Below, one piece after another: positions 5,657 to 39,118 of a stretch of DNA of 64,000 nucleotides. The stretch covers positions 78,897 to 142,896 of the forward strand of contig CAKOXD010000001.1 of the NCBI GenBank assembly GCA_934130005.1, read 5' to 3'. Made by a program: the position numbers and the translations under genes. The notes under the pieces were generated by a model. It saw only the letters and a list, made by a program, of their open reading frames with translations, ran no database searches and was not told where the DNA came from. The first letter of the stretch is position 1. Each line of letters starts with the position of its first letter. This DNA comes from an uncultured Bacilli bacterium (GTDB lineage Bacteria > Bacillota_I > Bacilli_A > RF39 > UBA660).

Positions 5657-6766
5657 TTATAAATATTTATTTATTTTATTTATTTCATTATTTGGATCTA
5701 AGTTAGTACTATTCAATTCTTCAAATAATTTTTTTTGTTCTTTTGTAATTTTTTTAGGAATTATTATATTTAAAATTACATACATATCTCCTTTATTATT
5801 AGAGTTTACATTAGTAATTCCTTTTCCTTTTAACCTATGTCTATCACCTGATAAACTTCCTGCTGGTATTGTTAGTTTTACATTTCCATATAATGTAGGT
5901 ATATCTTTTTTACAGCCTAAAACTGCTTCTGTTATCGTAATTGGAAGCTCTATATAAACATCATTTTCTTCTCTTTTAAATAGAGGATGTTCTTTTACAA
6001 CAAATTCTAAATAAACATCTCCATTTTCTCCTCCATTGCTTCCCATTTCTCCTTTACCTTTTAGTCTAAGTCTATTTCCAGTATCAACACCAGCTGGTAT
6101 CTTAACTTCAATTGTTTTATTTTCTTTTATTTTACCTAAACCGCGACATTTAGGACATTTTCTATCAAAGGTATAACCATCTCCACCACATGTATGACAT
6201 GTAGTTCTTGATTGAAAAACGCCAAACATAGTTCTTTGTTCTACAACTTCCATTCCACTACCATTACAAGTTGGACATGTTTTTTTAGAATGACCACCAA
6301 GTCCATTACATTCCGTACATTCTGTATAAACGTCCATTTTTATGTCTTTTTCACAACCAAAAACTGCTTCCTCAAATGTTAGATTTATTCTCATAAGTGA
6401 ATCATTACCACGTCTTGCTCTATTTGATGATTTTCTAGAACCACCAAATCCAAAACTACTACCAAATAAATCTCCAAATATATCGGAAAAATCAAAATCT
6501 CCGAAATCAAATCCAGAAGCACCTGCACTACCATTTTGAAATGCAGCATGTCCATATCTATCATATTGACTTCTTTTTTCTTTATCAGAAAGCACAGCAT
6601 ATGCTTCTTGTATTTCTTTAAATTTTGCTTCAGCATCCGGTTCTTTTGAAACATCAGGGTGATATTTTTTAGCTAATTTACGAAATGCTGATTTTATATC
6701 TGCATCGCTAGCATTTTTATCAACACCTAAAACTTCATAATAATCTTTTTTATTCACATACTTCAC
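5657..6766 (-). CDS. dnaJ: Chaperone DnaJ
   Basis: J-domain start KDYYEVLGV with HPD. A G/F-rich region and four CxxCxGxG zinc-finger repeats are present. Confidence 0.95.
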
Positions 6767-8571
6767 CTTCTTTTTGTTTTATATAAATTTTTAAATTCAT
6801 CAATTGTCTCATCAAACATTTTAATAGCACTTTCTATTACATCACTTTTAGTAACATCAACACCAGCTACTTTAAGTTCATTAACAGGGGTATCACTACC
6901 ACCTAATGTTAAAAACTTCAAATATTTTTCTAAGGCATTTTCTTTTTTATTTACAATACCATCTACAATGTAGCATGCACAAGATAATCCAATAGCGTAT
7001 TTATAAACATAAAAATCATAATAGAAATGAGGAACTCTCATCCATTCATATCTAATTAAATCATCAACGACTACATTATCCCCAAAATATTTTTTATTTA
7101 ATTTATAATATTCATTCGATAATAATTCATTAGTTAAAACTTTGCCTTGTTCTTTTATAGCATGCATATCACGTTCAAACTCAGCAAACATAACTTGTCT
7201 ATAAATTGTTGTTCTAAAAAGTTCCATCATATTATTTAATATATATAATTTTTCTTCTTTATCTTCACTATTTTCAAGTAAATAATGATTTAACAACATT
7301 TCATTAACAGTAGAAGCAACTTCTGCTACAAATAATCTATAACTTGAATTATTATATGTATTATTTTTACATGAATAATATGTATGCATTGAATGTCCTA
7401 ATTCATGAGCAAGGGTTGAAACATCATTTAATTTTCCTTCAAAGTTTAAGAGTACGAATGGGTTTGTATCATAAAATCCACTAGAATAAGCTCCGCCTCT
7501 TTTTCCAACATTGTTATAGACATCTATCCATCTTTCATCAAATGCTCTATTTATATTTTTAATATAATCTTCACCTAAAATACTTAATGCTTTTATAACA
7601 GTATTTTTTGCATCTTCAAATGTATATTCTTTATCATATTTTTTTATTAATTCAACATAATTATCATATAAATGTAATTCTTCTAAATTTAATATTTCCT
7701 TTTTTACATCAAAATATTTATACACTATGTCCATATTTTTATTTATTGTATCAACTAGATTATTATATACATCAGGTGTTATATTATCTCTAAACAAAGA
7801 AGCTTCTAAACTACTATTAAAGTTTTTCATTTTAGCTATACTTGTTAAATATTCTACATTTCCTTTAAAAGTGGTTGAAATAGTATTTTTAAAATTAGAG
7901 TATGTACTAAATAAAAGTTCAAATGCATTTTTTCTAACTTTTCTATCTTCTGATTGTAAAAATACTGTATAATTACTTTCTGTAAGTTCAACATCTTTTC
8001 CTGTTTCATCTTTAACAATGCCAAATTTCATATCAGAATCTGTTAATGCTTCATATGCCTCTTCAGGTATATCAAGTACTTTGGATAAAATAGATAACAT
8101 CTTTTCTTGGTCTTCTGTTAATTTATGATTTTGGTGTCTATAAAATTGTTGTAAATTAAATCTATATTTTTCTAATTCTTTATTTTGTTTTATATATTCT
8201 TCTACAGTTTCGTATGATTTTTCATACATTTCTGAATCTACAAATGAAGACTCTTCACTATATTTTGTAAGTAAATCATCTATTAATCCTTTATATTCTT
8301 GATATTTTGTATTTGTTGTATCTGAATCAAAATTCAAATGAGCATAATAATATAACTTATATAATTTTCTTGTTAAATCATCATCAAATTCTAAATATTC
8401 TAATAGAGAATCTGCACTATCTAGCAATTTTCCTTTGAAATTTTTTACTTTTTCCATTTCTTTACTTACAATTTTTATATTTTCAAAGAATTCTTTTTCA
8501 GTTTTAAATATTGTAGTTAAATCCCATTTATATCTTTCATCTATTTCATTTCTTGTTTTTTGTTTTTCCAT
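6763..8571 (-). CDS. pepF: Oligoendopeptidase F (M3B family)
   Basis: 602 aa. HELGHSMH zinc motif and M3-type architecture. It overlaps the dnaJ start by 4 nt. Confidence 0.85.
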
Positions 8572-8628: not shown

Positions 8629-10458
8629 TTATTTTTCTTCAAATTCAGCATCTACTACTGTATCATCTTTTTTATCATTATTAGTTGAATCATTAGATTC
8701 ATTATTTTCATTTGCTTCTTTTGCTTTTGCAGCTTCTTCATATACTTTAGTTGCAAATGCCATAGCTGTTTCTTGTAATGCATCTTTTTTAGATTTAATA
8801 TCTTCAATGTTATCTTTTTCCATTGCATCTTTTAATTCTTTTATTTGTTTTTCAGCTTTTTCTTTATCTTCACTACTAATTTTATCTCCTAAATCTTTAA
8901 TTGATTTTTCAGTTTGGAATACTAATTGTTCTGCTTCATTTTTAACTTCTGCTTCATTTTTTTTCTTTTCGTCTGCTTCACGATTAGCTTCGGCTTCTTT
9001 TACCATTTTATCAATTTCATCATCTGATAAATTAGTAGAAGATGTTATAGTAATTGATTGTTCTTTTCCAGTACCTAAATCTTTTGCTTTAACGTTTACT
9101 ATACCATTAGCATCTATATCAAAAGTAACTTCAATTTGTGGTACTCCTCTTGGTGCAGCAGGTATATTTGTAAGTTGGAATCTACCTAAAGTTTTATTAT
9201 CACTTGCCATTGGTCTTTCACCTTGTAAAACATGTATATCAACAGCTGGTTGATTATCTGCAGCAGTTGAGAATACTTGACTCTTACTAGTTGGAATTGT
9301 TGTATTTCTTGGAATTAATACTGTACATACATTTCCCATTGTTTCAATACCAAGTGAAAGTGGTGTAACGTCTAATAATACTATGTCATCTACTTCTCCT
9401 TGAAGTACTCCACCTTGAATTGCAGCTCCCATAGCAACTACTTCATCTGGGTTAACTCCTTTTGATGGTTCTTTTCCTAATTCATTTTTAATTAAATCAA
9501 CGACTTTTGGTATACGAGTAGAACCACCAACTAATAATATTTTATCTATGTCATTTTTAGTTAAATTAGCATCTTTTAAAGCTTTTCTTACTGGTTCTAA
9601 AGTAGAATCTAATAAATCACCTATTAAATCTTCAAATTTTGCTTTTGTTAAATTTACTGATAAATGAAGTGGTCCATTTTCACCTTGAGTAATAAATGGA
9701 ATAGAGATTTCAGTTGAAGACATTCCACTTAAATCTTTTTTAGCCTTTTCAGCTGCATCTTTAACTCTTTGCATAGCCATTTTATCATTAGTTAAATCAA
9801 TACCATTTTCACGTTTAAATTCACTAACTAAATAATCCATAATTCTTTGATCGAAGTCATCTCCACCTAAATGGTTATTACCACTTGTTGATAATACTTC
9901 AAATACACCATCACCTAATTCAAGAATTGAAACGTCAAATGTTCCTCCTCCTAAATCGTAAACTAATACTTTTTCATTTTTATCTTGTTTATCAAGTCCA
10001 TAAGCAAGTGCTGCAGCAGTTGGTTCATTAATAATTCTTTCAACTTCTAATCCTGCAATTTTACCAGCATTTTTAGTTGCTTGTCTTTGTGAATCATTAA
10101 AATATGCTGGAACAGTTATAACTGCTTTTGTAACTTTTTCACCAAGATATGCTTCAGCTGTATTTTTAAGATCAGTTAAAATCATAGCAGATATTTCTTC
10201 TGGAGTATAATCTTTTCCATTTACATGAACTTTTTCACTAGTTCCCATTTTTCTTTTAATTGAATATACTACATCTGGATTTGTAATCATTTGGTTTTTA
10301 GCTTTTATACCAACGATTGTTTCTCCATTTTTAAATGCTACTACTGATGGAGTAGTACGACTTCCTTCTGGATTAGCTATTACTTTAGCTTCTCCACCTT
10401 CATATACACATACACAACTATTTGTTGTACCTAAATCTATACCTATTGTTTTACTCAT
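8629..10458 (-). CDS. dnaK: Chaperone DnaK (Hsp70)
   Basis: [10 protein letters not shown] and DLGGGTFD motifs, with a C-terminal EEK tail. The start is probably the MSK at 10458. The ORF could extend to 10467. Confidence 0.95.
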
Positions 10459-10473
10459 AAATATCACCTTTCC

Positions 10474-11142
10474 TTATTCACTAACTTTAACCATTGCTGG
10501 TCTAATTACTTTATCTTTTAAAATATATCCTTTTCTTAAAACATCAACAACAGTTCCTGATTCTTTATCTGATTTTTCAGTCATAACTGCTTGATGATAA
10601 GCAGGATCAAATGGTTTATTAACACCATCAATTGGTTTAATATCAAATTTTTCTAAAACAGTAATTAAATTTCCATATACCATTTTAAATCCTTGTAAAA
10701 ATTTTGATACTTCATCTTCTAAATTATCATCATCCATCTTGATTGCACTTTCGAAATTATCAATAATTGGAAGCATTTCAAGAATTAAATCTTCATTTGC
10801 ATATTTAAGCATTTTTGATACTTCATCATCTTTACGACGACGATAATTTATCACTTCTGCTTTTTCTCTTAATAATTTATCATTTAATTCATTTATTTCT
10901 TTTAAAGCAGAATCTAATTTTTCTTTTAATTCTTTTTCTTCTTTTTTACCTTTGTGTTTTTCTTTTGAATCATGTTTTTTTGAATCATCAGAATGTTTAA
11001 CATCTTCTGTTTTGCATTCGCATTTATCATTACATGTGCATTCATCTTTTTTACATTCACATGTTTCATCACATGTTACTTCAGCATTTTGATTAGAGTC
11101 ACTATTTTGATTACATGTACAATTTTTTAAATCTTTTTCCAT
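10474..11142 (-). CDS. grpE: Nucleotide exchange factor GrpE with a Cys-rich N-terminal extension
   Basis: The core GrpE region (LKEKLDSALKEINELNDKLLREKAEVINYRRR...) is preceded by about 45 residues containing nine Cys in CxC-type spacings. Confidence 0.9.
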   Translation of the reverse strand: MEKDLKNCTCNQNSDSNQNAEVTCDETCECKKDECTCNDKCECKTEDVKHSDDSKKHDSKEKHKGKKEEKELKEKLDSALKEINELNDKLLREKAEVINYRRRKDDEVSKMLKYANEDLILEMLPIIDNFESAIKMDDDNLEDEVSKFLQGFKMVYGNLITVLEKFDIKPIDGVNKPFDPAYHQAVMTEKSDKESGTVVDVLRKGYILKDKVIRPAMVKVSE

Positions 11143-11144
11143 GT

Positions 11145-12134
11145 TTACTTCCTTTCTATGTTTTCTTTTATATATTCTAAAAGCATTGTTGCTCTATCAT
11201 ATTCCATTCTCTTTGGCCCTATAATTGCTATAGTTCCTAAAACGCCATCAACATCATATTTAGTTTTAATTATTGTTACATCATCATCAAATTCATTTTC
11301 ACTACCTATATAAATGTTTATGCCATTTTCTTCTTCTTTTATATTACTTATAAAATCTTTATCTTCAAATTTAGAAATGATTTTTTTTATTTTATCAGCA
11401 TCACTAAATTCAGGCTGTTTTAATATATTTGCTCTTCCTTTCATTTTTATATTTGATTCAGTTGTTACATCATTTATAAAATTACAGAAAGCATCAAATA
11501 ATTGTTTTTGAGAATTTACATTATCTTTTATTATTGGTTTTACTTCAAATTCAAGTTTTTCTACTACCTCATCTATTGGAGTACCAACAATATGCTTATT
11601 TATTATATCAATTGTTTGTTTTATTTCTAAAGCAGATATTTCTTCATCTAAAACAACATTTCTATTTTCAACATGTCCTTTATCTGTAACAATAATTGCT
11701 ACTAAGTTATTTTCATTTATAGGTATTACTTCAACTTTACTTATTTTGTTTTCACTTGACGTATTACCCAAAGATATTAATGTACAATTTGTAAGTTCAG
11801 ATACAATTTCTAAACTTTTTTCAATTGTATCACTTAATACAAGTGAACTATTATTAAATACAGTTTGAAGTTTCAACATATCATTTTTATTTATTTTTGT
11901 TGTTTCCATAATGTTATCAACATAATATCTATATCCTGCTTCACTAGGAATTCTACCTGAAGATGTGTGGGTTTTTTCTAAATACCCTAAATCCTCTAAA
12001 TAACTCATTTCATTTCTTATTGTTGCACTTGAACAGTTTAAATTTTGTTCTAATGATTTAGAACCAATAGGTTTGGCTGTTTTGATATATTCTTCAACAA
12101 TTAGCTTTAATAACTTTATCTGTCTACTATTCAC
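11145..12134 (-). CDS. hrcA: Heat-inducible transcription repressor HrcA
   Basis: 329 aa. An N-terminal winged-helix region (KTAKPIGSKSL) matches HrcA. GTG start, preceded by AGGAGGTG. Confidence 0.95.
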   Translation of the reverse strand: MNSRQIKLLKLIVEEYIKTAKPIGSKSLEQNLNCSSATIRNEMSYLEDLGYLEKTHTSSGRIPSEAGYRYYVDNIMETTKINKNDMLKLQTVFNNSSLVLSDTIEKSLEIVSELTNCTLISLGNTSSENKISKVEVIPINENNLVAIIVTDKGHVENRNVVLDEEISALEIKQTIDIINKHIVGTPIDEVVEKLEFEVKPIIKDNVNSQKQLFDAFCNFINDVTTESNIKMKGRANILKQPEFSDADKIKKIISKFEDKDFISNIKEEENGINIYIGSENEFDDDVTIIKTKYDVDGVLGTIAIIGPKRMEYDRATMLLEYIKENIERK

Positions 12135-12178: not shown

Positions 12179-12207
12179 TTATACTATTATATGTTAGCAT
12201 TGTCAAT
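12179..12207 (-). promoter_or_regulatory. Sigma-A-type promoter of the hrcA operon
   Basis: On the minus strand, TTGACA (12202-12207) is followed by a 17-nt spacer and then TATAAT (12179-12184). It overlaps the CIRCE element. Confidence 0.55.
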
Positions 12208-12221
12208 ATATGAGTGCTAAT
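12195..12221 (-). promoter_or_regulatory. CIRCE-like operator (HrcA binding site)
   Basis: The minus strand reads TTAGCACTC-N9-CAATGCTAA. The left arm is perfect and the right arm has 2 mismatches. An additional perfect GAGTGCTAA half-site lies at 12148-12156 next to the ribosome-binding site. Confidence 0.6.
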
Positions 12222-12285: not shown

Positions 12286-12975
12286 TTATGATCCTACTAT
12301 ATTTTTTAATCTTTTAATTACTTTTTTTTCTATTCTAGATATATATGATTGACTTATACCCAACATTTTAGCAACATCTTTTTGAGTCATTTCTTCATTA
12401 TTAAAAAGTCCATATCTAAGTATCATTATTTGTCTATCTCTTTTATTTAATTTATTTATTTCTTTTTGAAGAATTTTCTTATCATTTTCCTCTTCTATTC
12501 CTTTTGTTACTATATCAGCATCTGTTCCTAATATATCTTCTAAATGAAGTTCATTTCCCTCTGCATCATAACTTAAACTATCTTCAAATGAAACTTCTGT
12601 CTTTCTCTTTTTATTTTTTCTTAAATACATTAATATTTCATTATCTATACATCTTGATGCATAAGTAGCAAGTTTTATATTTTTATCTAATTTATATGTG
12701 TTAACACCTTTTATAAGTCCTATTGTTCCTATACTTACTAAATCTTCTAAATCTACTTTAGTGTTCTCATATTTTTTTGATAAATATACTACTAGTCTTA
12801 AGTTATGTTCTATTAACTTTTCTCTAGCATGTATATCTCCATTCATTGATTTTTCTACATATTTAATTTCTTCTTCTTTAGAAAGAGGTTCTGGTAATTT
12901 GTCAGTACTACCTATAAAAAATATATTATTTTTTATTAATACTTCCTTTATTTTTTTTATTAATTTTTTTATCAT
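12286..12975 (-). CDS. sigE: Sporulation sigma factor (pro-sigma-E-like)
   Basis: Sigma-70 regions 2-4 are present. The N-terminal pro-sequence (FFIGSTDKLPEPLS) is as in SigE/SigK. Its start abuts the stop of a spoIIGA-like gene. Confidence 0.8.
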   Translation of the reverse strand: MIKKLIKKIKEVLIKNNIFFIGSTDKLPEPLSKEEEIKYVEKSMNGDIHAREKLIEHNLRLVVYLSKKYENTKVDLEDLVSIGTIGLIKGVNTYKLDKNIKLATYASRCIDNEILMYLRKNKKRKTEVSFEDSLSYDAEGNELHLEDILGTDADIVTKGIEEENDKKILQKEINKLNKRDRQIMILRYGLFNNEEMTQKDVAKMLGISQSYISRIEKKVIKRLKNIVGS

Positions 12976-13761
12976 TTATTTTTCCAATATAGTTTGCCCT
13001 ATTATGCAATCTATTCCTTCCATTTTAATTTTTAAAGGTGATAATCCTATTAAAATATTCTTTTTTAATTCTATCCCATCTATATTTACTTTATCTGGTT
13101 TTATACATTTAATTAAACTATTATTATTTATAGTATTTATTGGAACTAATATATAATTATCTATATCTTTTTCTTTTATAATATTTTTATTAATTATTAT
13201 TATTGGTAAATTTAAATATGGATCTTTTAATTTATTTCCTGTATCTAAATAAGAATTTAAATTTAATATTCTATCTTTATAATATATGTCTATTTTATGA
13301 TAATAAGAATAATTATTTTTTAATTCCTTATTTTGTTTTATATATAAATATAATATTAAAGGTGATATTATTAATAATAAAATAAAGTTTATACTAAGAC
13401 CATTATGATAAAAAACAATTCCTTCCTTTTTATATGAAAATTCTATATTAAGTAAATATAAAAATCCCCCTAATATAATACTTGAAATATATAAATATGA
13501 AAGATTTTTTATTGTATATTTTAAATTTTTATATCCAAATGTTATCAAAATCATAATAATACTTATAAATATTTTAAAAACAAATAATTCAATACTATTT
13601 ATTTTTATAAATAATAAAAGTACACTAAGTGATCCTATTAAACTTCCAATTATAAGTCTTATAATTTTAATATTTCTCTTTAAGGTGAGTGCCACTGTTA
13701 ACAATAATATTAAATCAAAAGAAAAATTAATAAATAATACTAAATCAAGATATATTTTCAT
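12976..13761 (-). CDS. spoIIGA: Sigma-E processing peptidase SpoIIGA-like
   Basis: The N-terminus is polytopic and membrane-spanning. The C-terminal domain carries an LDTGN aspartic-protease-like motif. It sits immediately upstream of the pro-sigma gene. Confidence 0.7.
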   Translation of the reverse strand: MKIYLDLVLFINFSFDLILLLTVALTLKRNIKIIRLIIGSLIGSLSVLLLFIKINSIELFVFKIFISIIMILITFGYKNLKYTIKNLSYLYISSIILGGFLYLLNIEFSYKKEGIVFYHNGLSINFILLLIISPLILYLYIKQNKELKNNYSYYHKIDIYYKDRILNLNSYLDTGNKLKDPYLNLPIIIINKNIIKEKDIDNYILVPINTINNNSLIKCIKPDKVNIDGIELKKNILIGLSPLKIKMEGIDCIIGQTILEK

Positions 13762-15689: not shown

Positions 15690-16758
15690 CTAATTGATTT
15701 CCCATTCAGAAAAGAAGACGTAAGTCGCCTCTGGTCTTAACACATAGTTTCCTGGCTCAAAAGATATAGTTTTATAATTTTTAGTATTACCTGTACTGAA
15801 CTTTATATAAACTTCTTCAGAATTATCATCATTTACAGTACTAATTATAGCCGTATTTCCACTACTACCACCACTATCAGAGTAACGTGATCCAGAAAAC
15901 GATATTGTAATTGGTGTTTTAACTGTAAAGTATACATAGCAATTAACCATTTTATAAACAGAAAAGGCCTTTGTAAAAGAAATAAAATTAGTAGTATAAT
16001 CGCCATCAGTCAATCCTTCATATAACTTATTCATTAAATCTTTATCAGAAGATTCGACCTTTCCAGTACTTGCCTTTCCACCAAATGTTCCCTTAGTAAA
16101 TACAAGTGGCGCATCATCTATATTTACGGTTATAGCTACTTTTTTTATTGGCACATTATCTTTTGATATAATTATTTTTACTTTTCCACTCTTCTTAGCA
16201 ATAACAAGTCCATTTGAATCTACTGTAGCAATATTTTCATCACTACTTATATATGTATATCCATCCTCATGTTCTAATTGCAACCTTTTATACATTGACT
16301 TTTTTTGCACTGTTAATTTATTAGTTGAACATGTTCCAATTACATTTGATTTATTACTACTATATTCTATTTCATACCCATTTATACATAATGATGCATT
16401 TTCTACCTTTTTTTTACTTATTGTTACTGTTCCACTACTTGGTCTAGTTCCTTTAACATTGATACTATCTTCTATATCCAACACATCAATATCTTCGCCA
16501 TTTTCTATTAGTGGATATTTGTCTTTATTTATCATATTCATTGAATTATTATATTCAATCGCCTCTATATATCCATATGCACTATCTACTGCGGCACTTT
16601 TTCTTGCATCATTTATCATGTTTAATATTATTGGTGTTGCGATTAATGCAATGATTGCTAATATCACTATAACTGCAAGTAACTCTATAAGTGTAAATCC
16701 TTTCTTTAGGTTATCTAAATAACCCCCCCCCGAATTTTCTATTTGCTAACATAATCAT
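15690..16758 (-). CDS. Type IV pilin-like protein, out of frame at a homopolymer: an ATG and leader (MIMLANRKFGGG) lie in a different frame from the pilin body
   Basis: The pilin frame reads ...YLDNLKKG|FTLIELLAVIVILAIIALIATPII..., a canonical prepilin-peptidase site with the N-terminal hydrophobic helix. There is no in-frame start upstream of KKGF. The only nearby start is the ATG at 16756-16758, which lies upstream of the C9 run at 16723-16731 and is in frame only if the run were 8 or 11. The ORF-track CDS 15690..16667 starts at a GTG inside the helix. Confidence 0.7.
16723..16731 (-). repeat. Homopolymeric C9 tract (G9 in gene sense) in the pilin leader
   Basis: Nine consecutive C in a genome of roughly 25% GC, exactly between the ATG and the prepilin cleavage site. 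Confidence 0.9.
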
Positions 16759-20268: not shown

Positions 20269-22014
20269 CTAATTTCTTATTTTAATATGTACTTCTCTTA
20301 ATTGTTTTTCATCAATAATGCTTGGAGAACCCATCATTTTATCTTCTCCACTAGCTAATGCTGGGAATGTAATTACTTCTCTTAAATTTGTTTCATCTTT
20401 TAAAAGCATTAACATTCTCTCAATTCCAGGAGCCATTCCTGCATGTGGTGGTGCTCCAAATTGGAAAGCATTATATAAAGCTCCAAATCTTTCTTTTACT
20501 ACTTCTTTATCATATCCTACTAAGCTAAATGCTTTTTCTAGGCACTCTACATCATGATTACGAACAGCTCCACTTGCCATTTCATATCCATTACATACAA
20601 AGTCAAATTGATATGCTTTAATATCATCTAAATTATCACTTTCTAAAGCCTTAATTCCACCTTGTGGCATACTAAATGGATTATGTCCAAAATCATATTT
20701 CTTTTCTTCTTCATTATATTCAAACATAGGGAAATCATTAACTATGCAGAATTCATATCTGTTTTTATCTATTAAATCTAATTTATTTCCTAAATGAGTT
20801 CTAATTAACCCTGCATTTTTAATAGCAACATTTTTATCTCTATCAGCTATAAAGAAGATAACTGAATTTTCTTTTAATGAAGCTTTTTCAATTAAATCTT
20901 TTTTATTTTCTTCTGTTAAGAATTTATCAATGGGTCCTTTAAATGTATTATCTTCTAATAGTGATAAATATCCAATACCAGGCATTCCGATTGTTTTAGC
21001 ATAATCTACTATTTCATTAAACCAACTATTTGATTTTAAAGCAATATCATCTACCTTAATACCTTTTACATTAACTCCTCTAAATGGTTTAAATTCAGAT
21101 TCTTTAAAGATTTCACTTAAATCTATTATTGTAAGTGGATTTCTTAAATCAGGTTTATCAGTTCCATATTTTTCCATAGCTTCACTATAAGGTATTCTTC
21201 TAAATGGTCTTTTTGAAACTTCTTTTTTGCTAAAGTGAGTAAATGTATCATAGAAAATTTCTTCACCTACATTATACACATCATCTTCTTCAACAAAACT
21301 CATTTCAAAATCTAATTGATAAAATTCTAGTGCTCTATCAGCTCTTGTATCTTCATCTCTAAAACAAGGTGCGATTTGATAGTATTTTGAGAAACCTGAA
21401 CACATTAATAATTGTTTAAATTGTTGAGGTGCTTGTGGTAATGCATAAAATTTTCCTTTGAATTTACGTGATGGAATTATAAAATCTCTTGCTCCTTCTG
21501 GACTTGATGCTGTCATAATTGGTGTTTGAACTTCAGTAAATTCTAGTGAATCCATTTTGTTTCTTAGATATTTTAAAAGTTCTGCTCTAAATTTAGTCAT
21601 ATTATGTACTTTTTCATTTCTAAGATCTAAGTATCTATATTTTAATCTAACTTCTTCATTTACATCTTTAGATGTCATAATTTCAAATGGAAGATTATGT
21701 TTTGCTTTTCCAAGTACTTCTAGACTATCTACAAGTATTTCTATTTTTCCAGTTTTAATTCTTTCATTATAATCATCTTCACTTCTTTTTCTTACAGTTC
21801 CACTAAGAGTTATTGCTGATTCTTTTGTAAGTCCTTCAAATATAGAATCATCATTACTTACTACTTGAACTGTTCCATATTCATCTCTAACATCTACAAA
21901 TATAACTCCACCATGATCTCTTATATTTTCAATCCATCCAGCAATTCTAACTTTTTTACTGTCCATTTCTTCAGTTATTTGACCACAATATATTGTACGA
22001 TATTTATTTTCCAT
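20269..22014 (-). CDS. aspS: Aspartate--tRNA ligase, bacterial type with GAD insertion
   Basis: 581 aa. An N-terminal OB fold is present. Class II motifs FRDEDTRADR and GAPPHAGMAPGIERM are present. Confidence 0.95.
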   Translation of the reverse strand: MENKYRTIYCGQITEEMDSKKVRIAGWIENIRDHGGVIFVDVRDEYGTVQVVSNDDSIFEGLTKESAITLSGTVRKRSEDDYNERIKTGKIEILVDSLEVLGKAKHNLPFEIMTSKDVNEEVRLKYRYLDLRNEKVHNMTKFRAELLKYLRNKMDSLEFTEVQTPIMTASSPEGARDFIIPSRKFKGKFYALPQAPQQFKQLLMCSGFSKYYQIAPCFRDEDTRADRALEFYQLDFEMSFVEEDDVYNVGEEIFYDTFTHFSKKEVSKRPFRRIPYSEAMEKYGTDKPDLRNPLTIIDLSEIFKESEFKPFRGVNVKGIKVDDIALKSNSWFNEIVDYAKTIGMPGIGYLSLLEDNTFKGPIDKFLTEENKKDLIEKASLKENSVIFFIADRDKNVAIKNAGLIRTHLGNKLDLIDKNRYEFCIVNDFPMFEYNEEEKKYDFGHNPFSMPQGGIKALESDNLDDIKAYQFDFVCNGYEMASGAVRNHDVECLEKAFSLVGYDKEVVKERFGALYNAFQFGAPPHAGMAPGIERMLMLLKDETNLREVITFPALASGEDKMMGSPSIIDEKQLREVHIKIRN

Positions 22015-22016
22015 AA

Positions 22017-23480
22017 TTACCTCTTTTCTATTTCTTCTATGATCATACTTCTTGTCATAGCAGGATTTGCTTGTCCTCTTGTTTTTTTCATTACTTGACC
22101 TACTAAGAAATCAACTATATTTGTTCTACCATTTTTATATTGTTCTATAGAAGCTGGTTGTTCAGTTAATACTTCATTAATAACACTTAATATAGCACCT
22201 TCATCACTATTTTGTTTTAAACCTTTTTCTTCTACTATTTTAGTTGGTTCTTTTTCTTCAGTTAATGCAATATATAATACCTCTTTTGCTTGTTTGCTTG
22301 AAATATCTTTATTATCTACTAATTTGATTAAATCAACTAACATATTTGGTCTTAAAAATATATCATTTATATTTAAATCAAATTTATTTAAATGACCTAG
22401 TATTACACTTGTAATCCAGTTTGAACTTGCTTTTGGATTTGCACCTAATTTAATTGTTTCTTCATAATAATCAGCTACATCTTTTTCTTTTACAAGTATT
22501 TTAGCATCATATTCACTTATTCCATAACTATTTATATATTTTTCTTTTCTTTCATTTGCAAGTTCAGGAATAGATTTTCTAATTTCATCTAACCATTCTT
22601 TTGTTATTTTATATTTTGGAATATTTGGTTCTACAAAGTATTTATAATCAATAGCATCTACTTTACTTCTCATACGTATTGTAGTACCAGATTCTTCATC
22701 CCATCTTCTTGTTTCTTGAACTACAACTTCGTCATAATTTCCATCTTCTTTTGCATCCATTTGTCTTTCTATTTCAAAATTAATTGCATCTCTTACTCCA
22801 CCAAATGAATTGACATTTTTTATTTCAACTTTTGTTCCCCAATTATTAATATCTTCTGGATCTAAATTTTTATCCATTATTGAAACATTAACATCACATC
22901 TTATTTGACCTTTTTTGCTATCAGCTTCACTTATTCCAGCATATTGATAAATACTTCTCATAGTCTCTAAAAAAGATACTGCTTCATCTGCTGAATGAAA
23001 GCATGGTTCAGTAACAAGTTCAAGAAGTGGAACACCAGCTCTATTATAGTTAATTAATGTAGATGAACCTATATGTTCACTTGCTGCTGCATCTTCTTCT
23101 AGATGAAGATTATTAATCAAAGCAGTTTTCATCTCTCCATTACATTCATATTCAAGTTTTCCATATATACCAACTGGTGCTGGTTTAGTTTCTTGAGTAA
23201 TCTGAAATCCTTTTGGAAGATCTGGATAATAGTAATTTTTTCTTTCAAAATACATATATTCTGGTTGTTTACAATTTAAAATCATAGATGCCATAAGAGA
23301 TTTTTTTACTGCTTCTTTATTAACAACTGGAAGTGTTCCAGGAAACGCCATATCAACTGGTCTTATATTTGAGTTAGGAAGTTCTGTATACCCATTTCTA
23401 GCACTTGAAAATACTTTTGATTTAGTTTCACTAATCTCACAGTGCATTTCAAGTCCAATCATTACTAAATAGTTATCCAT
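22017..23480 (-). CDS. gatB: Asp/Glu-tRNA amidotransferase subunit B
   Basis: 487 aa. GatB motifs IGLEMHCE and NRAGVPLLE are present. Confidence 0.95.
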   Translation of the reverse strand: MDNYLVMIGLEMHCEISETKSKVFSSARNGYTELPNSNIRPVDMAFPGTLPVVNKEAVKKSLMASMILNCKQPEYMYFERKNYYYPDLPKGFQITQETKPAPVGIYGKLEYECNGEMKTALINNLHLEEDAAASEHIGSSTLINYNRAGVPLLELVTEPCFHSADEAVSFLETMRSIYQYAGISEADSKKGQIRCDVNVSIMDKNLDPEDINNWGTKVEIKNVNSFGGVRDAINFEIERQMDAKEDGNYDEVVVQETRRWDEESGTTIRMRSKVDAIDYKYFVEPNIPKYKITKEWLDEIRKSIPELANERKEKYINSYGISEYDAKILVKEKDVADYYEETIKLGANPKASSNWITSVILGHLNKFDLNINDIFLRPNMLVDLIKLVDNKDISSKQAKEVLYIALTEEKEPTKIVEEKGLKQNSDEGAILSVINEVLTEQPASIEQYKNGRTNIVDFLVGQVMKKTRGQANPAMTRSMIIEEIEKR

Positions 23481-24934
23481 TATTTAACCTCCTTTGCTAT
23501 TTGGTTTTTATAGTTCATTTTACTTTCTAGTGCATACGCAATATTAAGTACTGTTTGATCATTATAACAATTACCAGTAATATTTAAAGCAACTGGAAGA
23601 TTATCTATAAATCCATCTGGTATTGTAATTGATGGAAATCCACCAAAGTTTCCAACTTGTAAATGTTCTTCTAGGGCTGCTGTATTATCATCTAGTATAT
23701 CTTTTGATCCATCTAAATGTTTTGCAGGTCCACTACCAACTGGTAATATTACAGCATCATATTTTTGATAAAGCTTCTTCCATTCATCAACTAATAATCT
23801 TCTAACCCTTTGTGCATTATAGAAATATCTATCTTTATTTTGCTTTTGAAGTACATATGAACCAATTACAAATCTTCTTTTAATAAGTGGTGAAAATCCT
23901 TTTGTTCTATGATTTTTCATTTGTTCAATATATGTATTTCCTTCTCCCCTTGGACCAAAAATAAATCCTGTTAAATTAGACATATTGCTTGTAGCTTCAG
24001 CACATGAAATAACTACATAAACACTAGGTAGTGCATTAAGAAGTGTTTTATCAACAGATACTGCGTCAACTTCCATTCCAAGTTCTTTGCAAAGTTCTAA
24101 TTTCTCTTTGAAATTTTCTAAATGTTCTTTAAGCTCCTTACTTGCATTTGGATAATTTTCTATATCACATATTTCTTTTATATAACATAATTTTTTACCT
24201 TTAACATCTTTATTTAAATCTTTATATAAATTTATTTTGCTTGAATCCCAACTAGTCATATCATATTTGTCGATTCCTTTCATATTATCAACAACAATTG
24301 CAGCATCTTCTACACATCTTGATAATACACCTAAATGATCTAGGCTTGATGCAAAAGCAAATAATCCATATCTAGAAATCATTCCATATGTTGGTTTATA
24401 TCCGACAATTCCACAATATGCAGCCGGTTTTCTAATAGAGTCACCTGTATCTGATCCTGTTGCATAAGGATAGACTCCAGCAGCTACAGCACAAGCAGAT
24501 CCAGCACTTGATCCAGCACACATACGAGTTTTATCCCATGGGTTTCTAACAATACCAGTATGACCAGTTGTTCCAGTTCCTCCCATTCCAAATTCATCCA
24601 TTACAGTTTTATTAACCATAACAGCATTTGCACGTTTTAAATTTTCTATTGCAGTTGCATCAAAAAATGGTACATAATCTTTTAATGTATTTGATGAACC
24701 TGTAGATAAAATACCTTTGGTTGAATAATTATCTTTAACTCCATAAGGAATTCCGGATAATAAGTTATCTGTGACAATATCACCTTTAGCATCATCTAAA
24801 ATAGTAACAAATGCATTATATTTATCTTGTACTTCATGAGATTTTTTAAGTGATTCTTTTACAAGTTCATCACTAGTTACTTTTTTATTTACTAAATCTT
24901 CATGTAATTCTTTAATTGTTTTTTCCATATACAT
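23480..24934 (-). CDS. gatA: Asp/Glu-tRNA amidotransferase subunit A (amidase)
   Basis: Amidase signature GGSSAGSA and the GxSxG region are present. The start is likely the ATG at 24932-24934, 1 nt after the gatC stop and with an AAGGTGGTGGG ribosome-binding site. The ORF track extends to 24985. Confidence 0.9.
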   Translation of the reverse strand: MYMEKTIKELHEDLVNKKVTSDELVKESLKKSHEVQDKYNAFVTILDDAKGDIVTDNLLSGIPYGVKDNYSTKGILSTGSSNTLKDYVPFFDATAIENLKRANAVMVNKTVMDEFGMGGTGTTGHTGIVRNPWDKTRMCAGSSAGSACAVAAGVYPYATGSDTGDSIRKPAAYCGIVGYKPTYGMISRYGLFAFASSLDHLGVLSRCVEDAAIVVDNMKGIDKYDMTSWDSSKINLYKDLNKDVKGKKLCYIKEICDIENYPNASKELKEHLENFKEKLELCKELGMEVDAVSVDKTLLNALPSVYVVISCAEATSNMSNLTGFIFGPRGEGNTYIEQMKNHRTKGFSPLIKRRFVIGSYVLQKQNKDRYFYNAQRVRRLLVDEWKKLYQKYDAVILPVGSGPAKHLDGSKDILDDNTAALEEHLQVGNFGGFPSITIPDGFIDNLPVALNITGNCYNDQTVLNIAYALESKMNYKNQIAKEVK

Positions 24935-24935
24935 A

Positions 24936-25229
24936 TTATCCCACCACCTTTGGTACTTCAACTTCTCTATCTGTACAAACATCACAGTTAGAAAGTAAAT
25001 CTTCTATATCAATTGATTCTTCTACTTCATCTTCTCTAAGTTCAAACTCAAAATCATCTAAACAATGTGTCATTGGTTCTACTTGACTTATATTTGGTAT
25101 CTCGTTTATTAAATCGATATTTTTATCAATTATTTCAAATTCATCTAATACCATTTGATTTTCTTCTTCTGTTAAACCGATTAAAAGCTTTTCTGCATAA
25201 TCGTCTACCATTTCTTTAGTAAATTTCAT
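24936..25229 (-). CDS. gatC: Asp/Glu-tRNA amidotransferase subunit C
   Basis: 97 aa, acidic. It is first in a gatCAB arrangement. Confidence 0.8.
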   Translation of the reverse strand: MKFTKEMVDDYAEKLLIGLTEEENQMVLDEFEIIDKNIDLINEIPNISQVEPMTHCLDDFEFELREDEVEESIDIEDLLSNCDVCTDREVEVPKVVG

Positions 25230-25245
25230 ATAATCACCCTTTCAA

Positions 25246-25457
25246 TATAAAAAAGGATAGTACCTAAGGAGTGCTTATGCACGGTACCATCCTTTTATTT
25301 TCTTAATTAAATAACGGTATCAACCGAATATTCCTACTAATTTCAGAATATCAACTCCATGGTGTTTTTCATATTAAGCTTTTCTGTTAGTTCTCACTAT
25401 CCTAACTCACTTTTAGACAGTTTTTAATATTACTCTCCACTTCCCTGTTTTTAAAAC
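25246..25457 (-). ncRNA. T-box riboswitch leader of the gatCAB-aspS operon
   Basis: On the minus strand, the T-box sequence AAAAGGATGGTACCGTG (25280-25296) overlaps a 10-bp terminator helix, GGATGGTACC...GGTACTATCC, followed by a T-run. Stem I is upstream and carries AGUGAG motifs. Candidate specifier triplets AAC or GAU lie in the GUGAGAACUAACAG segment. Confidence 0.65.
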
Positions 25458-38185: not shown

Positions 38186-39049
38186 TTAACTTAATTTAAC
38201 ATATTTTTTATTAATCTTTATAACAGGTCTTATATAATGACTATCAGTTGTTACTGATGATGTAGCTAACGTATTATTATTTACATAATATGCTGAAGTA
38301 GTACCATATGTAGTACTTGTCCAATATTCACCATTTATCCATGTTTTATCTGCATCATTTACTATTGTTTTTATAACATTTTCGAATTCATCTTTTGTGA
38401 TTAACCTTTTTTCTGTTGCATAATTCCATGTATAATTTTCATTTAAAAATGTATCAATAGCATCTGGATTATCATTATTAGTACATGAAGTACACCAAGC
38501 TATTTTATTACTATTACTACTTGCTAATATACCAATTATGTAATTATCTCTTTCATCACTTTTTTCTATTACATAAAATTCACTAGTTTTTTTATCACCA
38601 ACAGTTACTAATACTTTATCTCCTATTTCATATTTTGTAAATTCTTGATCAATAACTTGATATTCTAATTTATTATTTTGTTTTTCTATTACAATTTCCA
38701 TTGTATCACTAAAAGCTTTCTTTGTTCTTACATTTTTTAAATCAGAATCTATATATCCACCATCTTGAAGATCTTTTAATGTAATAATTAATCTAGAATA
38801 GTTTTGACTACATTTGTCTATATCAGAATATAAGCACTCTACTTTTGTGTTACTAGAATTCGGAAGTATAGCTAAATTGTCAGAACCCCAGATTTTTGCT
38901 GCCGATTCAATATTTTTTATTTGATCATTATATAAATTTGTTTTATATTTTTTTAGCGATCCAGTTATTCCAGGAACTGTTACTAAAGCAATTAAAGCTA
39001 ATACAGTTAAAACAGCTAAAAGTTCTATCAATGTAAATCCTTTTTTCAT
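38186..39049 (-). CDS. Type IV pilin-like protein with a large C-terminal domain
   Basis: MKKG|FTLIELLAVLTVLALIALVTVP is a class III signal peptide with the N-terminal pilin helix. The start is the second ATG, with an AGGTGA ribosome-binding site. The ORF track begins 6 codons upstream. Confidence 0.75.
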   Translation of the reverse strand: MKKGFTLIELLAVLTVLALIALVTVPGITGSLKKYKTNLYNDQIKNIESAAKIWGSDNLAILPNSSNTKVECLYSDIDKCSQNYSRLIITLKDLQDGGYIDSDLKNVRTKKAFSDTMEIVIEKQNNKLEYQVIDQEFTKYEIGDKVLVTVGDKKTSEFYVIEKSDERDNYIIGILASSNSNKIAWCTSCTNNDNPDAIDTFLNENYTWNYATEKRLITKDEFENVIKTIVNDADKTWINGEYWTSTTYGTTSAYYVNNNTLATSSVTTDSHYIRPVIKINKKYVKLS

Positions 39050-39118
39050 ATTATCACCTATATACATAATATCAAAATAAATTTATATTTTCAAATATTT
39101 AAGTAAATATAATGTAAA

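Follow-up and report, generated by a model that had tools for sequence, protein, structure and literature searches.

A window of 64,000 nucleotides (nt; the whole stretch of DNA analyzed here, 24.3% G+C) from an uncultured Bacilli bacterium contains the gene for GrpE, the nucleotide exchange factor of the DnaK chaperone machine. The translation revealed a conventional GrpE of 222 amino acids (aa) with a Cys-rich, metallothionein-like N-terminal tail that is predicted to be disordered. By analogy with known metal-binding proteins, we hold with moderate confidence that this tail acts mainly as a metal sink or buffer coexpressed with the chaperones under stress. Cys- or His-rich GrpE tails occur in many gut relatives and point to an undescribed link between the DnaK machine and metal handling. 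Residue numbers below refer to the window GrpE.

The protein begins with MEKDLKNCTCNQNSDSNQNAEVTCDETCECKKDECTCNDKCECK..., and DLKNCTCNQNSDSNQNAEVTCDETCECK is an example of a peptide from its tail. Cys is present at residues 8, 10, 24, 28, 30, 35, 37, 41, and 43 and is absent from the other 179 residues. The Cys-rich core (residues 8 to 43; 11014..11121, minus strand) thus contains nine Cys (25%); it is acidic and free of aromatic residues. An earlier note on this DNA, which placed the feature at 10990-11142 (codons 1 to 51), had described nine Cys in about 45 N-terminal residues with CxC, CxxxCxC, and CxCxxxCxC spacings, and this was confirmed by the translation. In residues 1 to 47, we counted 13 Asp plus Glu, six Lys plus Arg, no His, and no Phe, Tyr, or Trp. 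Together with the dense CxC motifs, this bears out the metallothionein-like composition proposed in the note. Residues 48 to 75 are basic and contain His, and a linker rich in Lys, His, and Asp (residues 44 to 61) lies behind the Cys-rich core.

In the window open reading frames (ORFs) of at least 100 aa, Cys accounts for 1.18% of residues. Against this background, the probability of nine or more Cys per 45 residues is 2.7e-9 (approximately 5e-5 when about 20,000 windows of this kind are allowed for), and therefore chance was rejected as an explanation for the Cys of the tail. No other 45-residue stretch of the window is as dense in Cys as the tail; the zinc finger of DnaJ, with six Cys, comes second. 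AlphaFold2 left residues 1 to 61 (10960..11142, minus strand) without secondary structure and with a predicted local distance difference test score (pLDDT) below 50, suggesting that the whole N-terminal tail is disordered; a long helix starts at residue 62. In agreement with this, the alignments with solved GrpE structures begin only at residue 67 or 75. This model, based on a 40-sequence alignment, had a mean pLDDT of 54.7 and a poorly modeled beta-domain, and it was used for tail disorder alone. Furthermore, Tandem Repeats Finder (score 52, 83% matches) detected an in-frame tandem duplication of 18 base pairs (bp) in 2.3 copies at 11086..11126 (minus strand). It encodes CNQNSD / SNQNAE and accounts for the Cys-free spacer of 13 residues between Cys10 and Cys24.

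Host gene and translation of the tail

Behind the tail, the canonical GrpE domain described in the earlier note was recovered. Residues 60 to 222 matched Pfam GrpE (PF01025) with 168.6 bits (cut-off, 25.8), and the NCBIfam GrpE equivalog NF010738 was matched with 158.1 bits (cut-off, 137). The best solved relative was GrpE 4ANI (E = 6.9e-33; query residues 67 to 222), and 1DKG aligned with query residues 75 to 221 (E = 4.7e-22), residue 75 of the query corresponding to residue 46 of 1DKG.

The grpE coding sequence (10474..11142, minus strand; 222 aa plus stop) belongs to a minus-strand gene set comprising lepA, spoIIGA, sigE, hrcA, grpE, dnaK, pepF, and dnaJ, in which the heat shock genes are arranged as hrcA-grpE-dnaK-pepF-dnaJ. 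The first gene of the operon, hrcA (11145..12134, minus strand), codes for the heat shock repressor (Pfam HrcA C-terminal domain, 174.7 bits). Upstream of hrcA, we found a CIRCE operator, TTAGCATTG-N9-GAGTGCTAA, at 12194..12220. It has two mismatches to the consensus TTAGCACTC-N9-GAGTGCTAA, and a match was obtained in 0 of 100 shuffled sequences. Directly downstream of grpE is dnaK (8629..10467, minus strand; Pfam HSP70, 825.7 bits). Its true start is likely the ATG at 10458, which gives a protein of 609 aa; the gene is also called as 609 aa in a 99%-identical contig (L081). The dnaJ gene (5657..6766, minus strand; NCBIfam DnaJ_bact, 433.7 bits) encodes an intact CxxCxGxG zinc finger. Having hrcA, dnaK, and dnaJ as neighbors along with CIRCE is the context of a GrpE of the Firmicutes type. 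Judged by domain matches and gene context, the grpE product is a bona fide GrpE of an ordinary HrcA/CIRCE heat shock operon.

A strong Shine-Dalgarno sequence, AAAGGAAG (11148..11155, minus strand; upstream region ...GAAAGGAAGTAAAC-ATG), is located inside the 3' end of hrcA and ends 5 nt ahead of the grpE ATG (11142-11140). The hrcA stop codon TAA (11145-11147) is 2 nt away from this ATG, and the next in-frame ATG, GTG, or TTG is codon 97, which already lies within the conserved GrpE domain. Because of the strong Shine-Dalgarno sequence, the close hrcA stop, and the lack of a start codon before codon 97, the tail must be translated. In line with the earlier note, the extension is therefore no annotation artifact.

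A protein identical to that of the window (P0139) and six more variants, all of 222 aa and 98 to 99% identical, were found on a total of about 20 independently assembled contigs from several studies. All nine Cys are kept in these near-identical variants, save for a single C41Y in one of them. Contig L081, from the gut of Hadza people, is 99% identical over 6.7 kb and has the same operon; the Cys41 codon of this strain differs by a synonymous change, TGC>TGT. The note had named loss or variation of the segment among near-identical strains as a sign of misassembly; apart from the C41Y singleton, neither was observed. Since near-identical variants on about 20 contigs keep the tail, an assembly error was rejected. 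With equivalent tails in more than 100 homologous clusters in addition, it is almost inconceivable that the true start lies downstream or that the Cys-rich segment is chimeric or misassembled, and both explanations were ruled out by the start codon scan, the correctly spaced Shine-Dalgarno sequence, and the repeated independent assembly.

Tails of relatives and the same module on other proteins

The 120 best homologues (54 to 98% identity) originate from metagenomes and metagenome-assembled genomes (MAGs) named just "Bacilli bacterium" or "Firmicutes bacterium." At least five Cys were present in the N-terminal tail of 117 of them, with a median of 12.5 Cys per tail and a maximum of 23 in the tails as delimited (up to 24 per protein). 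A search covering one genome for each species revealed at least 595 related loci, of which the best 80 were taken and their genes called anew. These species-representative MAGs of uncultured gut bacteria (25 to 33% G+C) came from human, rabbit, deer, reindeer, mouse, and chicken and are labeled Bacilli, Tenericutes, Mollicutes, or "Acholeplasma sp. CAG:878"; Tenericutes and Mollicutes are frequent labels for relatives of the 24%-G+C host. In this set, 47 tails had four or more Cys, 32 had none, and one had three, and the order hrcA-grpE-dnaK was kept in 77 of the 80 loci. The all-or-none distribution argues for a functional module instead of scattered Cys. As to the lineage specificity considered in the earlier note, the tail is not specific to a strain but characterizes a large clade of low-G+C uncultured gut Bacilli.

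Between the first and the last Cys, the tails of the clade consist of 31.6% Cys, 22% Glu, 10% Asn, 7% Asp, and 7% Lys, while Tyr (0.2%), Phe (0%), Trp (0%), Leu (0.2%), Ile (0.1%), Val (0.2%), and Arg (0.2%) are virtually missing. For comparison, the GrpE cores contain 3 to 10% each of Leu, Ile, Val, Phe, Tyr, and Arg; Trp is absent from the cores too. The distance from Cys to Cys is mostly 2 (CxC, 679 cases), followed by 4 (299 cases). A single mutation can turn TGY into a codon for Tyr, Phe, Trp, or Arg. Therefore, the absence of these residues from the tails in an AT-biased genome suggests that Cys is kept by selection.

In some relatives, His was found along with or instead of Cys. Mixed tails with His and CxC are present in L024 and L025 (both with HEHKHEECKCHE repeats), L026, L033, L038, L041, and L060, and pure His tails occupy the same position in L028 (23 His) and L039 (14 His). 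GrpE tails of sister species have up to 24 His, for example in four copies of HEHKHEECKCHE. According to a rough tree of GrpE cores, the species with His-rich tails fall into a few neighboring groups and not into one clade. The His-rich tails resemble Ni-binding sequences of the Hpn/HspA type. As far as can be read from composition, the common denominator of the tails is metal-ligand residues rather than Cys as such. The linker between the last Cys and the helix varies among the relatives from 0 to approximately 30 residues.

Word-indexed searches with the tail-only profiles A2 and A3 yielded few matches that passed the whole-database E-value, but they revealed the module on DUF1292 proteins, a ferredoxin, a valyl-tRNA synthetase (ValRS), and a divergent GrpE. 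With 1.84 billion representative proteins, A2 gave three matches at E ≤ 0.001 (two GrpE fragments and P0147), a number that says little on breadth, A2 being too short and compositionally biased. In DUF1292 (PF06949) proteins, the module is an internal insert made of CGCKEGKECTCGDD repeats (contig L086, 23.5% G+C). The carriers (P0144-P0146, P0148, and P0149; L086 804..1223) stem from gut contigs of very low G+C content and have two to four such repeats in tandem, which sit in a loop halfway through the domain, flanked by ...YAVLTEL and ESLFILEI.... These carriers are small proteins unrelated to GrpE. No DUF1292 was found in the window and the related loci. A small ferredoxin (Fer4_13/Fer4_15) from contigs with 23% G+C ends in a CxC tail of approximately 55 residues (P0152 and P0156; L087 5001..5357 and L088 1292..1648). 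The ferredoxin contigs also encode the spore proteins YutH, YunB, and CotJB and a Mn catalase. A C-terminal ValRS fragment on a 579-bp contig carries the module ahead of a coiled coil, and a GrpE with only 25% identity to the window GrpE has it as an N-terminal tail (567-bp contig). In P0147 (contig L085, 41% G+C), an N-terminal Cys-rich domain is fused to a transmembrane helix. An NCBIfam scan of the carriers P0145, P0156, and P0147 gave no match.

A scan of metagenome contigs with the degenerate DNA pattern E-CxC-x3-4-CxC-x3-4-CxC was swamped by (TG)n microsatellites translating as CVCVCV and was unusable for a census; the protein-like matches were only L209, L200, L208, and L149. On L209 (122..280, minus strand; 23% G+C), a free-standing ORF of 52 aa, just downstream of a 1288-aa ORF, encodes 19 Cys (37%) in the sequence MEDKEKIETCSCGCECEECNCDESCECGCDCEECECNECCDCEECSCEDCNC, the start of which resembles GrpE tails. 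By its sequence, it is a candidate for a stand-alone bacterial metallothionein. Tails rich in CxC or in His and Cys were also observed at the C termini of unrelated proteins from bacteria with higher G+C content, namely, a 560-aa FAD-dependent (flavin adenine dinucleotide), glycerol-3-phosphate-dehydrogenase-like protein from a human gut contig (L208 3109..4788) and a NifX/NifB-like protein ending in HGHGHGHGHCGCGKH (L200 3047..3988), both identified by eye.

Proposed metal binding and rival explanations

We propose that a metallothionein-like module, about 36 acidic, hydrophobic-free residues with nine Cys in CxC pairs, has replaced the Cys-free disordered N terminus of GrpE and that a basic flexible linker leads from it into the dimerizing coiled coil. 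The reduced thiolates would bind soft or borderline ions, such as Zn(II), Cu(I), and Cd(II), as metal-thiolate clusters, and the His-rich relatives may bind Ni or Co. With the 9-Cys beta-domain of mammalian metallothionein taken as a model, the window tail could take up approximately three divalent ions or four to six Cu(I) per chain and twice as many per GrpE dimer. Since the operon is under CIRCE/HrcA control, the sink would be produced together with the chaperones handling metal-induced misfolding. At the DnaK machine, it would primarily buffer or sequester metal and possibly deliver it, with the nucleotide exchange core working as usual. Under anaerobiosis, Cu(I) kills by aggregating proteins containing Cys or His, an effect that DnaK/DnaJ/GrpE counter (PMC9040851). 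With a thiolate tail on GrpE, the defenses against copper and against aggregation would be linked in a direct and testable way. The variation from 0 to 24 Cys, the unconserved Cys positions, the repeated gain and loss, and the presence of the module on unrelated carriers and in free-standing form argue for an autonomous module of the capacity type over a tuned sensor. Resemblance to metallothioneins is given by a Cys content of about 30% in CxC clusters across the clade and by sequences that are free of aromatic and nearly free of hydrophobic residues; the window module is not a free-standing small protein, and homology to a curated metallothionein family was not found. One homologue tail scored 21.9 bits against the 23-bit cut-off of Pfam Metallothionein (PF00131).

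Several observations weigh against the proposed metal sink. The likely metal binding of the tail is deduced from composition and analogy, and the window tail had no Pfam metallothionein match at E ≤ 10. With its nine Cys and its 13-residue Cys-free spacer, it is a comparatively weak version of the module. In 29 independent close pairs, the tail evolved about three times faster than the core, and 3.6% of Cys sites were changed compared to 4.2% of other tail sites (Fisher P = 0.75), so that a position-specific constraint on Cys could not be demonstrated. Because both samples of relatives were ranked with the full-length query, the counts of 117/120 and 47/80 overestimate the prevalence of the tail. 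On a rough neighbor-joining tree of GrpE cores, the trait changes its state at least about 16 times, and together with the 32 of 80 species lacking tail Cys, this indicates that the tail is dispensable. Furthermore, no other carrier of the module was detected in approximately 480 kb flanking grpE in the 80 genomes, and none in the window. GrpE is thus a strongly preferred, although not the sole, carrier, a preference that pure storage alone leaves unexplained.

This preference is among the points in favor of a switch, an explanation that we consider unlikely. The two tails of the GrpE dimer would sense metal load or oxidation, and metal bridging or disulfides would alter GrpE activity, either because the thermosensing helix pair is clamped at its N-terminal ends or because the tail contacts the substrate-binding domain of DnaK differently. 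The DnaK cycle would thereby be tuned to metal or redox stress. A parallel dimer, as inferred from the structures 1DKG and 4ANI, would bring the two tails together, and the finding that even the 25%-identical GrpE has the module suggests something specific to GrpE. The GrpE N terminus was reported to aid substrate release from DnaK, a role that is debated (PMC12987570). Redox regulation was reported for vertebrate GrpEL2 via a Cys disulfide (PMC6089081, PMC5807549), and yeast Mge1 was reported to be regulated via Met oxidation (PMC6089081, PMC5807549, PMC12987570). However, the ligands of a tuned switch normally form a fixed set, whereas the number of Cys and the length of the linker vary as described above, the Cys positions lack conservation, and the trait is frequently gained and lost. 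The occurrence of the module on DUF1292, ferredoxin, and ValRS and on its own also speaks against a switch. In addition, the predicted flexible linker of about 19 residues before the helix of the window protein would weaken mechanical coupling, and in gut anaerobes, oxidative signaling is less obvious. A switch of the Hsp33 type was considered and rejected: in place of a fixed, conserved four-Cys zinc center, we found 0 to 24 Cys at unconserved positions. As to the earlier note's suggestion that nucleotide exchange is coupled to the sensing of metals or redox state, metal binding stands as the most reasonable chemistry for this composition, but nothing specific spoke for the coupling. It is similarly doubtful that the tail is a working part of the chaperone cycle. 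Possibly, when GrpE triggers the release of metal-misfolded clients from DnaK, the tail relieves them of adventitious Cu(I), Zn, or Cd, or metal or disulfide links between the two tails set the stability of the thermosensing helix pair. If so, a whole clade of gut bacteria would have placed the Hsp70 cycle under direct input from metal or redox status. As a related possibility, these organisms, whose genomes are reduced, may rely on abundant proteins with Cys-rich tails as the principal thiol and metal buffer of the cytosol.

A slippage-prone, low-complexity repeat tolerated at a permissive disordered terminus and having no selected function appears improbable to us. In its favor, the tails lengthen through tandem duplications that keep the reading frame (L025, 39 bp x 4.2; L044, 63 bp x 3.7, each with 94% match; window, 18 bp x 2.3) and are hypervariable, with a median identity to the window tail of 34% compared to 73% for the cores. 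Their Cys sites evolve no slower than other tail sites, and the many species without tail Cys fit this explanation as well. The variable Cys number and linker length, the lack of positional conservation, the gain and loss, and the unrelated carriers would, taken alone, agree with such neutral expansion. However, drift at 24% G+C should give runs of Asn, Lys, Ile, Phe, and Tyr and not 32% Cys with few hydrophobic or aromatic residues. Neutral drift is also at odds with the bimodal distribution of Cys (0 or at least 4), with the persistence of the character over hundreds of species-level clusters despite sequence turnover, and with the enrichment of alternative tails in His, the other classical metal ligand. 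Moreover, the reading frame is always kept, as are the Cys of near-identical strains with the C41Y exception. Other Cys chemistry, such as an Fe-S cluster, a thiol or persulfide buffer in cells without low-molecular-weight thiols, or a substrate for thioether formation by a radical S-adenosylmethionine (SAM) enzyme as in SCIFF/ranthipeptides, is highly improbable. The high thiol density and the ferredoxin among the carriers would be compatible with it, and Cys-rich peptides flanked by Asp, Asn, or Thr superficially resemble ranthipeptide precursors. However, metal-thiolate clusters typically feature CxC pairs separated by acidic spacers, while Fe-S motifs consist of CxxC or CxxxC plus a distant Cys. 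The Fe-S option raised in the earlier note is therefore unlikely for a tail with CxC-only motifs, and Fe-S and zinc ribbon readings were set aside. The His-only variants are inexplicable by thiol chemistry. No radical-SAM maturase adjoins grpE in the window or the 80 related loci, where hrcA and dnaK are the neighbors. A SCIFF/ranthipeptide precursor was rejected, the Cys-rich segment being part of a GrpE between these two genes.

If the tails indeed bind metal, they would represent a large, previously unnoticed reservoir of metallothionein-like sequences in common uncultured gut bacteria of human, rabbit, deer, mouse, and chicken. Nearly identical cores carry Cys-only, Cys-plus-His, His-only, or plain tails, and these natural variants are suitable for probing the debated role of the GrpE N terminus.

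Other genes of the window and comparison with known systems

Besides the genes described above, the heat shock operon contains pepF, encoding oligoendopeptidase F (6763..8571, minus strand; NCBIfam, 639.6 bits), between dnaK and dnaJ. It overlaps the dnaJ start by 4 nt and is an unusual insertion into a heat shock operon, conserved in the Hadza contig. Directly upstream of hrcA are spoIIGA, coding for the sigma-E processing peptidase, and sigE (12286..13761, minus strand). Both score under the equivalog cut-offs and are thus divergent genes; their presence suggests that this 24%-G+C organism keeps sporulation genes. An Rfam scan of the window gave nothing bearing on the GrpE tail; a T-box leader (102 bits; 25264..25454, minus strand) precedes the putative genes gatC (24936..25229), gatA (23480..24985), gatB (22017..23480), and aspS (20269..22014), as judged by eye. 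According to the translations, two ORFs of about 300 aa (38186..39067 and 15690..16667, minus strand) have prepilin-type N termini, e.g., MKKGFTLIELLAVLTVLALIAL, which suggests type IV pilin or competence pseudopilin-like proteins.

The database annotation of the tailed homologues reads just "nucleotide exchange factor GrpE." In the openly accessible full-text literature, we found no description of a GrpE with a Cys- or His-rich, metallothionein-like, or metal-binding N terminus. A 2025 review of GrpE-like factors mentions neither zinc or other metals nor a Cys-rich N terminus and discusses Cys only for GrpEL2 (PMC12987570). A 2024 review on bacterial metallostasis does not mention GrpE either in its first 300,000 characters, out of a total of about 606,000.

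With canonical GrpEs such as those of Escherichia coli (1DKG) and Geobacillus kaustophilus (4ANI), the window protein shares the long helix, the helical domain, and the beta-domain from residue 62 on. The operon type with CIRCE control and a disordered acidic N terminus are also common to it and canonical bacterial GrpE. In contrast to its Cys-rich N terminus, the N termini of the two best-studied GrpEs, those of E. coli and Bacillus subtilis, are free of Cys.

With metallothioneins (the mammalian beta-domain, fungal Cu-thioneins, SmtA/BmtA, and MymT), the tail shares a Cys content of about 30%, CxC clusters, the absence of aromatic residues, a similar size, and disorder in the metal-free state, which for the tail is predicted. 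It differs in being fused to GrpE and in having no detectable homology to curated metallothionein families, and the zinc-finger-like fold features of SmtA/BmtA, with their His and aromatic residues, are absent from it. Like the GrpE tail, the thioredoxin-metallothionein chimera TrxA of Runella aurantiaca is a natural fusion of a bacterial housekeeping-type protein with a metallothionein-like domain; it binds metals and raises metal tolerance in E. coli (PMC13578184). Carrier, phylum, and metallothionein sequence are different, and TrxA is one characterized protein as opposed to a clade-wide, hypervariable tail.

In GrpEL2, the disulfide-forming residue is Cys87, and the switch of Hsp33 is a fixed four-Cys zinc site. 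Tuning of a chaperone system via a sulfur-containing residue is what the tail may have in common with GrpEL2, Mge1, and Hsp33 (PMC6089081, PMC5807549, PMC12987570). In those proteins, however, a single residue or a fixed site is conserved in or near the fold, whereas GrpE tails have 5 to 24 unconserved Cys in a disordered segment.

By analogy, the closest counterpart is the Ni-binding tail of Helicobacter pylori HspA, a GroES whose His/Cys-rich extension serves in Ni storage and detoxification; its deletion is viable, and it is dispensable for the chaperone function (PMC3856676). In both cases, an essential co-chaperone of a major chaperone machine is extended at one terminus by a low-complexity segment with many metal ligands, and the His-plus-CxC tails of L024, L025, and L038 come closest to HspA. 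The extension of HspA is C-terminal, rich in His and Cys, and a specialty of Helicobacter. The GrpE tail, a putative metal-binding segment, is N-terminal, dominated by Cys in CxC motifs, 30 to 80 residues long, highly variable, and present in many species. If the tails bind metal, a further core chaperone component would have been recruited for metal handling after H. pylori HspA, to our knowledge the first such case for GrpE. In summary, metal-binding tails on chaperones and metallothionein fusions are known, and what is new is a GrpE-borne, clade-wide, metallothionein-like tail.

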